Shown: positions 342 to 22,181 of the stretch, piece after piece
Position numbering within the stretch: the stretch's first letter is position 1
How the letters are laid out: each line of letters opens with the position of its first letter
Assembly: GCA_048941285.1 (NCBI GenBank)
Contig: JBHLNS010000005.1
Location: 66,169-130,168 of the forward strand
DNA from: Promethearchaeota archaeon
GTDB taxonomy: Archaea > Asgardarchaeota > Lokiarchaeia > Sigyniarchaeales > SOKP01
DNA: 64,000 nt
Reading direction: 5' to 3'
Position numbers and translations under genes: made by a program
Notes under the pieces: model-generated
Database searches by the model: none
What the model saw: the letters and a program-made list of their open reading frames with translations, nothing else
Told to the model about the DNA's origin: nothing

Positions 342-571
342 ATGACAGAATATAAAAGAGCAAAATGTCCCCAATGTGGCAATGAGAACCCACGCAAGCT
401 TCATGAAGAACCGGATAAAAATAATGTGCTATACTACAGCATAGGTAAAGCTATTTCAGCATACCGCTGAGGCAGGGCACTCCGGTTTATGCAAAATTTA
501 AATTTACATAAAATTTAGAGGCAACATCCATGAAATGCGGGGATTGCGGGAGTCTGTTCAAGAAGAACTAA
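342..571 (+). CDS. Small zinc-ribbon protein (56 aa) split by two BHB introns; exons 342-442, 472-495, 526-571
   Basis: Spliced: MTEYKRAKCPQCGNENPRKLHEEPDKNNVLYYSMQGTPVYAKSMKCGDCGSLFKKN, with two CxxC knuckles. The unspliced frame stops at TGA 468-470. Confidence 0.85.
443..471 (+). other. 29-nt BHB intron 1 in the zinc-ribbon mRNA
   Basis: Central helix CAGC(437-440)/GCUG(466-469); bulges AU^A and AG^G; intron stem GGUA/UACC; exon stem GUGCU/GGCAC. Ligation creates AUG and restores the frame. Confidence 0.88.
496..525 (+). other. 30-nt BHB-like intron 2 in the zinc-ribbon mRNA
   Basis: Central helix UGCA(490-493)/GGCA(520-523), 3 of 4 paired; bulges AA^A and AC^A; 9-bp intron stem UUUAAAUUU/AAAUUUAGA; removes in-frame TAA 509-511. 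Confidence 0.78.
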
Positions 572-658: not shown

Positions 659-1885
659 TTAGATTAAAGATAAAACTATTTTATTTTGAGCTTTCAACAT
701 ATCTTCCATAATAAGTTCCATCGCATCTTTGATATCCGGATTATTATCAGGAATACTACGTTTAGCATTCACACTTGCCATAAGGACTTCATTTAGTCCA
801 CGTAAAATCATATCTGGGCTATACCAAGGTCTTTGTGAAGCCCACCATTGTTGACATGAGTGAATTCCGCGATCTAACAAATTTCTTGCGTTATCAAAGA
901 TCCTTTTCTTTTCATTATCCATTCCATCTCGATATTTTGATGCTAAATGAATTAAGGTGAGGGCATACATAAAAAATCTATGTTGTTCAATATGTATTTC
1001 ATTTTGCGGGTTGAACCATAATGGGAAAGGCACGTCAGTAGCAATGTCATATGGCATTGTTGACCAACTTGAATCACGTGGAATTTGAGTAAACCCTTTA
1101 GGAAATCTATCTACTATTTCTGATAAAGTAGATATTTTTATATCATGTCGATGAGGGAGTGCTTGAAACAATGGGATTAAAAAGTTACTTATTGCATGTT
1201 TAACATGGTGTCCAAAAGTTTCACCATCCATAGCTAGTATAACATAATAGTCTTGAGATGTTTGCTTGTAATATAGACGTTTAATAAATGAATCTATATT
1301 ATTAATTTTATCAAAAGCGCAGTCAATTGAAATATAATCATCCCTAAAAAGTAGCTTAAGTCCATTAGGATGGACTGATATATAATTCGTAGGAAATTCT
1401 GCGGATGTGTTAGCAATTCCACTCATAATTATCCAATCAAAACCAGCTTTTTTCACGATTTTGAATACTTCTTCAGATACAGCCATTTCAGGAGGAAAAA
1501 ATCCACGAGGATTATAAAGCTTCCCAAAGAAATGTCTATTAGTATCATTATTTAAAATTATTTGGCGCTTAACTTCGGGTTCTGGGATTAAAGGAAGCAG
1601 AGGATGAAACTTTCCAGACCCAGTAAATTCAATTTGTCCTTTAGAGGCTAAAGTAATAATTGCTCCAATTAAATCGTCATATCCAAAATCATGTAATTGT
1701 TCGGTTAATGTTCCATTAATGTTTAAAGTAATTTTCGCCAGAGGGTTATCCCTTAATGCATCGATTATTGGCTTATAGGATTCATTTACTATTTGTTTGA
1801 TTACTATTGGGATTTGAACTGGAGGTTGATAAATATGAAATAAAAAGGCAAAATAAACGACCATATAATAAATTAAAAAATCCAC
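659..1885 (-). CDS. Glycoside hydrolase family 57 protein
   Basis: HIYQP, FHPLLPLI, FFPPEMA and MDGETFGHH motifs; true start probably ATG at 1864. Confidence 0.85.
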   Translation of the reverse strand: MDFLIYYMVVYFAFLFHIYQPPVQIPIVIKQIVNESYKPIIDALRDNPLAKITLNINGTLTEQLHDFGYDDLIGAIITLASKGQIEFTGSGKFHPLLPLIPEPEVKRQIILNNDTNRHFFGKLYNPRGFFPPEMAVSEEVFKIVKKAGFDWIIMSGIANTSAEFPTNYISVHPNGLKLLFRDDYISIDCAFDKINNIDSFIKRLYYKQTSQDYYVILAMDGETFGHHVKHAISNFLIPLFQALPHRHDIKISTLSEIVDRFPKGFTQIPRDSSWSTMPYDIATDVPFPLWFNPQNEIHIEQHRFFMYALTLIHLASKYRDGMDNEKKRIFDNARNLLDRGIHSCQQWWASQRPWYSPDMILRGLNEVLMASVNAKRSIPDNNPDIKDAMELIMEDMLKAQNKIVLSLI

Positions 1886-1927
1886 TTTTTTTAATCTTCA
1901 TAATTCTTACGCGTAATGATCATAAAA

Positions 1928-2674
1928 TTATTTTAAAATTAGATCATAGATTTCTCTCATCCTTTCGACACTAATTTGCCCTTCTGCTGTCTTTTCTTCT
2001 AAGAAAGCATAAGTCAAATGAGAACCTACAATAATACAATTAATTCTAGAGAAAATCCCTAATTCTCCCATACAGAATGAGATAATTCTTTTATTAGAAC
2101 TAGAGAATTCTTTACATAGTCTCAAAGGAATTAGATTATCGTCAAAGGTTTGAGCCGTAAAAACAATTTTATAGATGCTGTCTCTAATTAAATTTAGATC
2201 TAGGTTTAACTCTTGAGTCAGCTTTTTATTGAAATTGTCTATATATTTTGTTGTTTCATCAAAGGATAATGTCCTTTCGAAATTGTGGTATGAAAAAATC
2301 AATTTAACTCCGTTTTGATAAGCCAAATTGATTATTTCAACTAAAAATTTGTCTTCAGTATTCATTTCAAAGTCAACATAATTAGGTCTAGCAAAAATAA
2401 ACATTTTATAAATTTTGAATCGATCGTCTTGTTTTAATTGAATTTGACCTCCTTCAGATATATTTCTGAGGGTAAAGATAACTGAAGCATGGGGGTGAAT
2501 TATAATCAATAAATTTCTTATGAACTCCATTGAAATGCTTTCAATATTTTGAATATAATCAAATCTCAATTCAATTAGATTAACTTTTGATTTTATTGCT
2601 TTATCAATTACTGGTTTCAGTTCTTTAATACTTGAATATCTAATTGGAATTGGAATACATAGATTATATTTCAT
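1928..2674 (-). CDS. aroD: Type I 3-dehydroquinate dehydratase
   Basis: IELRFD, IFTLRxxxEGG, SYHNF, FCMGELGIFSR, TAEGQ. Confidence 0.9.
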   Translation of the reverse strand: MKYNLCIPIPIRYSSIKELKPVIDKAIKSKVNLIELRFDYIQNIESISMEFIRNLLIIIHPHASVIFTLRNISEGGQIQLKQDDRFKIYKMFIFARPNYVDFEMNTEDKFLVEIINLAYQNGVKLIFSYHNFERTLSFDETTKYIDNFNKKLTQELNLDLNLIRDSIYKIVFTAQTFDDNLIPLRLCKEFSSSNKRIISFCMGELGIFSRINCIIVGSHLTYAFLEEKTAEGQISVERMREIYDLILK

Positions 2675-12463: not shown

Positions 12464-12742
12464 CTATGATGTCTTTTGACTCCAAACACTCTCTTTTATT
12501 AAAGTTTGAAGACATTTCGCACAATATCTCCCACTTTCCACTCTATTTGCCCTTCTTGATGTAATATGAGTTTTAGTCATTTTAGAAGGTCTTAATCTTG
12601 GAATAGACTGAAGAGGTTTTTTACATATTGCACAGTTTGCTCTCTTAGGTTTTTTTCTCCAATAGTGGGTAACATTTCTGTTCCCTGGTGTGCTGACAGA
12701 TTTTCTTGCTTGAGTTTTAGAACGTAAACCTGGTCGTGGAAT
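12464..12742 (-). CDS. rpl34e: 50S ribosomal protein eL34 with a non-canonical ATT/ATA start (absent from the ORF track)
   Basis: (M)PRPGLRSKTQARKSVSTPGNRNVTHY...CAIC...RYCAKC; in-frame TAA five codons upstream and no ATG/GTG/TTG in between. Confidence 0.9.
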   Translation of the reverse strand: MPRPGLRSKTQARKSVSTPGNRNVTHYWRKKPKRANCAICKKPLQSIPRLRPSKMTKTHITSRRANRVESGRYCAKCLQTLIKESVWSQKTS

Positions 12743-22088: not shown

Positions 22089-22181
22089 TGGCGGCCCTCG
22101 AGGGGAATCGAACCCCTACCCCTCCGCAGGATAACTGGGTTTGAAGCCCAGCGTCAGAGACCACTCCAACCGTCAAGGGCC
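22089..22181 (-). tRNA. selC: tRNA-Sec(UCA), 9/4 archaeal/eukaryotic fold, CCA encoded, intron-less
   Basis: 9-bp acceptor GGCCCUUGA/UCGAGGGCC, 7-bp D stem, UCA anticodon, long variable arm, 4-bp T stem, G73. Confidence 0.95.

Follow-up and report, generated by a model that had tools for sequence, protein, structure and literature searches.

The pre-mRNA of cbf5, which encodes a pseudouridine synthase, contains a bulge-helix-bulge (BHB) intron in Desulfurococcales and Sulfolobales, and the accessible text of that report places the cuts between the second and third letters of the bulges (Yokobori 2009, PMC2738675). A further messenger substrate of the archaeal splicing endonuclease is the HVO_1309 mRNA of Haloferax volcanii, where the BHB intron lies in the 5′ UTR; in the available portion of the paper describing it, cbf5 is called "only one example" of a BHB intron in archaeal mRNA besides this 5′-UTR case (PMC7714728). 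Protein-coding genes appear only as neighbors of tRNA loci in the accessible part of a preprint on Asgard tRNA introns (bioRxiv 10.64898/2026.10.13.758758). We found no report of EndA-type introns in Asgard protein genes in the main texts of the searchable open literature, and supplements may hold more.

Here, a gene for a small zinc-ribbon protein from an Asgard archaeon was examined near the start of a 64-kb stretch of DNA (hereafter, the window). With a probability of roughly 85%, the pre-mRNA of this gene would carry BHB mini-introns that are excised by EndA and joined by RtcB, with the result that a Met codon is made and a second CxxC knuckle is read. The mRNA would very probably be spliced before the full protein is made, a reading drawn from comparison of gene sequences across the genus.

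The interrupted gene and its orthologs

The unspliced ORF at 342–470 comprises 42 codons, contains the first CxxC (CPQC), and ends at TGA 468–470. The second CxxC (KCGDCG, 533–550) lies downstream of this ORF in a different frame. Once both inserts are removed, the predicted product is 56 aa, encoded by a coding sequence of 168 nt that ends at the stop codon TAA 569–571. The predicted arrangement is as follows.

342–571, + strand: the whole small zinc-ribbon protein gene, from the ORF list, its translation, and orthologs
342–442, + strand: predicted exon 1, with the first CxxC knuckle; its 3′ end is AT, the first two letters of the Met codon
443–471, + strand: predicted intron 1 (site A), 29 nt, holding the in-frame TGA 468–470, with comparative and covariation evidence
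472–495, + strand: predicted exon 2, which opens with the last letter (G) of the Met codon and continues through QGTPVYA into two letters of a Lys codon
496–525, + strand: probable intron 2 (site D), of 30 nt, which includes the in-frame stop TAA 509–511; its boundaries are ambiguous by about 3–4 nt
526–571, + strand: predicted exon 3, which runs through the second CxxC knuckle (KCGDCG) and the C-terminus to the stop codon

In the proposed mechanism, the transcript would fold so that exon letters 437–440 pair with intron letters 466–469, leaving two 3-nt bulges, and a heteromeric (alpha-beta)2 EndA would cut each bulge between its second and third letters. RtcB, which commonly circularises excised introns of this type as well, would then ligate the exons, and the join would both complete the Met codon of the invariant LYYSMQGTPVY sequence and shift the frame so that the second CxxC can be read. 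The second 30-nt insert, for which 496–525 is the best assignment, would be removed likewise, and with it the in-frame TAA. Unspliced RNA would yield only a 42-aa one-knuckle fragment, and without the second splice the window copy would end at TAA 509–511, with no second CxxC.

The 56-aa zinc-ribbon protein is restricted to the Promethearchaeota (Asgard) lineage of the window. No Pfam family matched it above cut-off (best matches of 16–19 bits versus cut-offs of 23–34), nor did any NCBIfam family (best 12–20 bits versus cut-offs of 20–90), and a search of the Atlas returned unnamed clusters only. The database name of two clusters, "ribosomal protein S27AE," was discarded as unsupported; the S27e and S27ae scores were far below cut-off. 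A weak likeness was seen between the zinc ribbon and the ribbon at the C-terminus of proteins with gelsolin repeats in the same genome. One of these (L003; contig C72, ORF 1429–2439, minus strand) is a protein of 336 aa with gelsolin repeats (PF00626, E = 4.9e-28) and a C-terminal zinc ribbon weakly like the small protein (E = 5.5e-4), and proteins like it, about 338 aa long, occur repeatedly in the genus.

The window was compared with DNA contigs of four runs. Contigs of run X1 matched it over 250–494 and 468–700 with 0 differences, the second insert being covered, and contigs of X7/X8 covered 401–491. Two joints in DNA contigs, 483>656 and 494>663, were set aside as belonging to other organisms, with five other letters each and unknown letters between.

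Searches with exon 1 as query (33 aa) returned one ortholog each from 49 of the 54 genomes of the genus (E <= 1e-8), and these loci were compared together with one from another genus of the same order, for a set of 50. The 29-nt insert was present at the identical site in 35 of the 50 orthologs, all within the genus, and its length was invariant. The remaining 15 contained uninterrupted ORFs of 56–58 aa that read ...VLYYSMQG(T/N)PVY...KCGxCG...; LYYSMQG and the P, V, and Y were invariant in 14 aligned uninterrupted proteins, and an ATG spanned the site in all 15. Deletion of the 29 nt in silico produced a two-CxxC ORF in 32 of the 35 insert-bearing loci, mostly of 56 aa. The three misses were the window and G016, with a second insert each, and G010, for which the extraction fell two codons before its ATG. 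The downstream neighbor was found in the short flanks of 18/35 insert-bearing and 5/15 uninterrupted loci, and synteny was dropped as proof of orthology on account of these low counts.

The preliminary description of this locus had proposed that splicing makes a Met codon, and the AT|G junction indeed reproduces the motif of the 15 uninterrupted orthologs. Homologs with a contiguous YYSMQGTPVY-like sequence, which it had suggested looking for, were found in every insert-free ortholog as YYSMQG(T/N)PVY (14 with T and 1 with N). Its further claim, that removal of the insert repairs a frameshift, holds for the frame of the second CxxC, which is restored, but not for the product of the window copy, where that frame still encounters TAA 509–511 before the second CxxC. 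A single splice at site A is thus insufficient for a full-length product in the window's genome, and the second insert had been overlooked.

Variable sites were also counted by codon position. When the downstream exon was read in the spliced frame, 6 first, 8 second, and 21 third codon positions were variable (22 codons, 29 sequences); the corresponding counts for exon 1 were 10, 12, and 32. The third-position bias of the downstream exon, like that of exon 1, points to purifying selection on a frame that is readable only once the insert is gone.

The second insert and inserts at other sites

Between the PVYAK codons and MKCG, the window gene is about 30 letters longer than that of its closest relative (G019, with an exon 1 that is 94% identical). 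Among 263 deletions that restored a two-CxxC product of 50–62 aa, removal of 496–525 gave the best BHB, with a central helix of TGCA/GGCA (3/4 pairs), bulges AAA and ACA, and a 9-bp A/U-rich inner stem; two other 30-nt registers, located 3–4 nt upstream, also fit. The deletion leaves a product of the 56-aa ortholog length and keeps the conserved Lys. The site-D insert was found in 1 of the 50 orthologs, that of the window's genome, and a blastn-short search with it against the same genome returned only short A/T-rich matches and no relatives. We hold 496–525 to be a probable, not an established, BHB intron, which would be removed by the same route as the first.

Inserts at neighboring positions in other lineages support this reading. 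G057 (locus L054) contained a 32-nt BHB insert with 4/4 central pairs and an 8-bp inner stem, and two metagenome loci, L072 and L121, contained 30-nt BHB inserts at the same place, two letters into the Lys codon downstream of PVY and one codon (3 nt) upstream of site D. These three copies are without the site-A insert. The metagenome loci were collected with a search pattern biased toward uninterrupted forms; inserts of at least 10 nt occurred in 8 of 80 such loci and were internal in two (L072 and L121), the rest being alignment-end artefacts. In G016 (locus L021; G016:C20, about 12485–12522, minus strand), a second insert of 31 nt was located in the Tyr codon of PVY; no other deletion that restores the frame at this locus has 4/4 central pairs. 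Four insertion sites were identified in this small gene across lineages. Three database homologs (P0034, P0037, and P0025) read across YYSMQG(T/N)PVY and stop soon after, at 44, 53, and 48 aa, respectively; judged from these proteins, further lineages may have downstream inserts.

These inserts bear on an alternative in which the site-A intron is real and the window copy is a young pseudogene, with the region around 496–525 left unspliced and the protein truncated at TAA 509–511. The occurrence of the second insert in a single ortholog, the mismatch in its central helix, the fit of several registers, and its lack of relatives elsewhere in the genome all accord with decay. Against this, the insert shares its length of exactly 30 nt with the other mini-inserts in the genome, and it folds into a 9-bp hairpin with a 3-nt bulge on either side. 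Deleting it returns the ortholog length with the conserved Lys, the exon that follows is intact, and G057, L072, and L121 carry clean BHB inserts of 30–32 nt only one codon upstream. We therefore regard a pseudogene as unlikely.

The history of the site-A intron was addressed with a gene tree built from 141 columns of coding letters and rooted on the sequence from the other genus; the tree is short and weakly resolved. On this tree the intron state must change twice, with a single gain within the genus followed by a single precise loss. The uninterrupted loci L044 (G064) and L046 (G059) were nested within the insert-bearing (starred) clade, a placement that suggests precise loss of the intron.

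A covariance model of the intron core (R1) was then considered across the 54 genomes of the genus. It matched the 35 training sites and also the second insert of G016, on which it had not been trained (E = 2.7e-5). A match in G063 (E = 0.002) was rejected as chance, being inside an intact 163-aa ORF. Within the window's genome, R1 found no further copy, and its matches below E = 1 were partial. The second insert of G016 is a diverged copy of the first, with a global alignment score of 16 that 0 of 2000 shuffles reached. It lies 17 coding nt downstream of the first, and both are preceded by the exon hexamer CAGTAT, whose letters supply the exon strand of the central helix and the two exon letters of bulge 1. 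The presence of a copy behind the same hexamer hints that the intron moved and is the trace expected from reverse splicing, in which the EndA/RtcB chemistry would run backwards on an RNA that completes the BHB, with subsequent copying back into DNA. It is possible, although we hold the idea only tentatively, that BHB mini-introns form a mobile, genome-wide class of mRNA introns in the genus that spread in this way. If true, this would provide a concrete route for introns spliced by protein enzymes to spread among the coding genes of the archaea most closely related to eukaryotes.

Fold and covariation of the site-A insert

The elements of the motif at site A are listed below.

437–472, + strand: BHB motif core, comprising the central helix, two bulges, and the inner hairpin 444–465
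437–440 (CAGC) and 466–469 (GCTG), + strand: central helix, 4 bp
441–443 (ATA) and 470–472 (AGG), + strand: 3-nt bulges
444–447 (GGTA) with 462–465 (TACC), and 450–452 (GCT) with 458–460 (AGC), + strand: inner stem
426–480, + strand: outer exon helix, interrupted, with pairs 434–435/474–475 and 426–430/476–480
426–430 (GTGCT) and 476–480 (GGCAC), + strand: distal exon stem

Near the site, a BHB scan gave only one solution that combines 4/4 central pairs with 3 bp or more in the inner helix, namely 442|443 and 471|472. The letters, the coordinates, and all of the helices that the preliminary description had listed for 443–471 were exactly as written there. Its term "textbook" was an overstatement, since the exon helix does not abut the bulge; an invariant A–C mismatch (436/473), 2 bp, and a 3-nt bulge stand between bulge 2 and the 5-bp stem. 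The site-A motif is a relaxed BHB, not a canonical or textbook one. Measured against the features that define BHB introns, it has the central helix, the bulges, and an intron helix (h′) of 8 pairs, but only part of the exon helix (h) of the canonical hBHBh′ form; cuts between the second and third bulge letters would give AT|G and the sequence read in the 15 uninterrupted orthologs.

The BHB shape by itself is no more than chance would supply, and the weight of the case lies in the comparative evidence. When the criteria were a central helix of 4 bp, a pair of 3-nt bulges, and 4 bp or more of inner helix, 578 chance look-alikes of 27–33 nt were counted on the two strands of the 64-kb window, and BHB-shaped sites of 14–70 nt in the window numbered 4717. 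The minimum-energy fold recovers the stems, with a non-significant MFE z of −1.32, and 19 of 200 shuffles fold equally well.

The structure was tested with a gap-free alignment of the 35 insert-bearing sequences, comprising 58 columns and 19 pairs. Standard pairs occupied 94.3% of 646 cells, and both-sided changes were found in 10 of the 19 pairs. The covariation score was 0.239 against a shuffled mean of 0.143, with none of 500 shuffles as high, and sliding the partners by 1–3 columns reduced pairing to 22–50%. The central helix was paired in 99.3% of cells, and compensatory changes were seen in 7 of the 8 pairs of the inner helix. The outer exon helices 434–435/474–475 and 426–430/476–480 had 98.5% and 94.1% of their cells paired, respectively, and contained a single covarying pair apiece; their support is weaker because the same letters serve as codon third positions. 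The geometry of 3-nt bulge, 4-bp helix, and 3-nt bulge was kept in 35/35 orthologs. The letters that form the ATG were invariant in the 35 sequences (columns 16, 17, and 47), and the intronic bulge letters vary; invariance of the exon bulge letters (A and T; G) is expected if the splice creates an ATG.

This pattern also weighs on translational recoding, in which the ribosome would shift frame at, or hop over, the 29 nt with the hairpin as the recoding signal. Ribosome hopping is known from phage T4 gene 60 and from the byp elements of yeast mitochondria, and bypass elements are generally built with a hairpin and a stop codon immediately beyond the take-off region, an arrangement that the hairpin and stop at site A resemble. 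A single frameshift would have to occur after the last stop of the downstream frame and before the first stop of the upstream frame. No such position is common to the 35 sequences, as some need the shift after offset 122 and others before offset 105, and the permitted interval in G023 and G062 is about 1 nucleotide. A single frameshift thus cannot be a mechanism that all of them share. A hop would not create the Met codon, for which ATG is present in 15/15 uninterrupted orthologs and the AT...G letters are invariant in the interrupted ones, and no matching take-off and landing codons were seen by eye. The conserved bulge and helix geometry is a requirement of EndA and is unneeded by a ribosome. 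Recoding is accordingly very improbable as the source of the full-length protein. A selenocysteine tRNA gene is present in the window at 22089–22181 on the minus strand (ARAGORN; Rfam RF01852, 59.4 bits), so some UGA codons would be read as Sec by this organism; Sec decoding does not explain TGA 468–470, because the downstream frame differs.

There is scarcely any likelihood that the true product is the 42-aa single-knuckle protein, with the hairpin acting in termination or regulation and the second CxxC left as a relic: public annotation does contain matching ORFs of 42–44 aa (P0035, P0036, and P0038–P0040), which end inside the insert and are the only form in which we encountered the homologs ending after the first CxxC that the preliminary description had named as counterevidence, but their lineages keep the downstream exon conserved in the shifted frame, with both Cys, the length, and the third-position bias retained, and the insert-encoded tail is unconserved, changing where the stem covaries and stopping early (at 35 or 38 aa in total) in 8 of 34 scorable sequences through a TAA or TGA in the hairpin.

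Splicing machinery, other interrupted genes, and comparison with known systems

Excision by EndA and joining by RtcB would require both proteins, and genes for both were found in the genome. Two EndA-family genes scored 104 and 69 bits to PF01974; the two subunit genes lie on contigs C70 (198 aa) and C68 (201 aa). For one of them, the product could be aligned over its full length with chain 3p1z_B of the solved Aeropyrum pernix endonuclease, and it retains the Tyr, His, and Lys that we take to be the catalytic triad; in the other, Ser stands in place of the His. This arrangement fits one catalytic and one non-catalytic subunit of an (alpha-beta)2-type enzyme. The RtcB gene was identified with PF01139 (568 bits), and aragorn predicted 31 tRNA genes, calling an intron in 19. 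The accessible text of one report describes Asgard EndA as (alpha-beta)2 with a broad-specificity L1 loop, and relaxed BHB forms as being cleaved only by broad-specificity EndA types (PMC5829648).

A genome-wide scan was performed for BHB shapes whose removal joins two open frames of at least 60 codons. It returned 856 raw candidates, of which 133 passed shape filters; 10 were inspected and two were kept, in the genes for RNA polymerase subunit A′ (rpoA1) and aEF-2.

Contig C1, 98368–98397 (locus L065, 241–270): rpoA1 insert
Contig C1, 142733–142762 (locus L066, 211–240): aEF-2 insert

The rpoA1 insert is BHB-shaped, 30 nt long, contains two stops, and lies between GHFGH and IELA; the match to the Pfam Rpb1 domain-1 profile resumes after it without a gap (positions 2–73 and 74–312). 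Interruption of rpoA1 appears sporadic, with a short open frame after exon 1 in 7 of 51 matched genomes of the genus, among which the insert itself was inspected in the window's genome. The aEF-2 insert, likewise BHB-shaped and of 30 nt, places a stop codon in the GTPase domain; its central helix is 4/4 paired and its inner stem is 9 bp long. Matches to the Pfam GTP_EFTU profile cover positions 2–35 before it and 49–187 after it. That essential genes are interrupted alike argues that the organism splices mRNAs. Candidates C10, C36, and C35 were rejected since the downstream frame resembles a separate gene start, and C50 since its unspliced reading is a normal enoyl-CoA hydratase C-terminus; C29, C64, C30, and C88 were inspected and neither kept nor rejected.

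Collectively, the conserved, covarying intron and the inserts in rpoA1 and aEF-2 indicate that splicing of mRNA by the tRNA-splicing enzymes is routine in the gene expression of this lineage. Gene callers truncate such genes, so that a 42-aa ORF is called and not the 56-aa protein. The findings raise the questions of how splicing is reconciled with coupled transcription and translation and of how introns entered the genes of the closest prokaryotic relatives of eukaryotes.

Among eukaryotes, XBP1/HAC1 mRNA contains a short non-spliceosomal intron for which a protein endonuclease cuts two small RNA structures, the exons are joined by an RtcB-type ligase, and removal of the intron shifts the reading frame. 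The endonuclease in that system is IRE1, not EndA/Sen, and the reaction is a regulated stress switch. The HVO_1309 mRNA resembles the present case as a messenger substrate outside tRNA and rRNA; it differs in that its intron is in the untranslated leader and interrupts no reading frame. The EndA of Haloferax volcanii is also of a different type. In Asgard archaea and Thermoproteales, tRNA introns that are non-canonical or multiple share the motif, the length of about 30 nt, and the presumed enzymes, as far as the accessible texts describe them, whereas the host here is a messenger, the cuts must preserve a reading frame, and splicing would have to compete with translation (bioRxiv 10.64898/2026.10.13.758758; PMC5829648).

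The closest parallel is with cbf5, where a short intron also lies within the coding sequence, with a relaxed BHB, the same predicted cuts, and a host with a hetero-oligomeric EndA. In both cases related species vary in whether the intron is present, a pattern that points to gain and loss. Watanabe 2002 and Yoshinari 2006 reportedly also dealt with the cbf5 intron. The splicing of cbf5 was shown experimentally, whereas splicing here is inferred from sequence. The gene here encodes a 56-aa zinc ribbon, the host belongs to the Asgard archaea (Promethearchaeota) and not to the Crenarchaeota, up to two introns are predicted per 168-nt coding sequence, and four insertion sites are used across lineages. 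Both the gene and the phylum are new for coding-sequence BHB introns, and the kind of motif is already known from cbf5.
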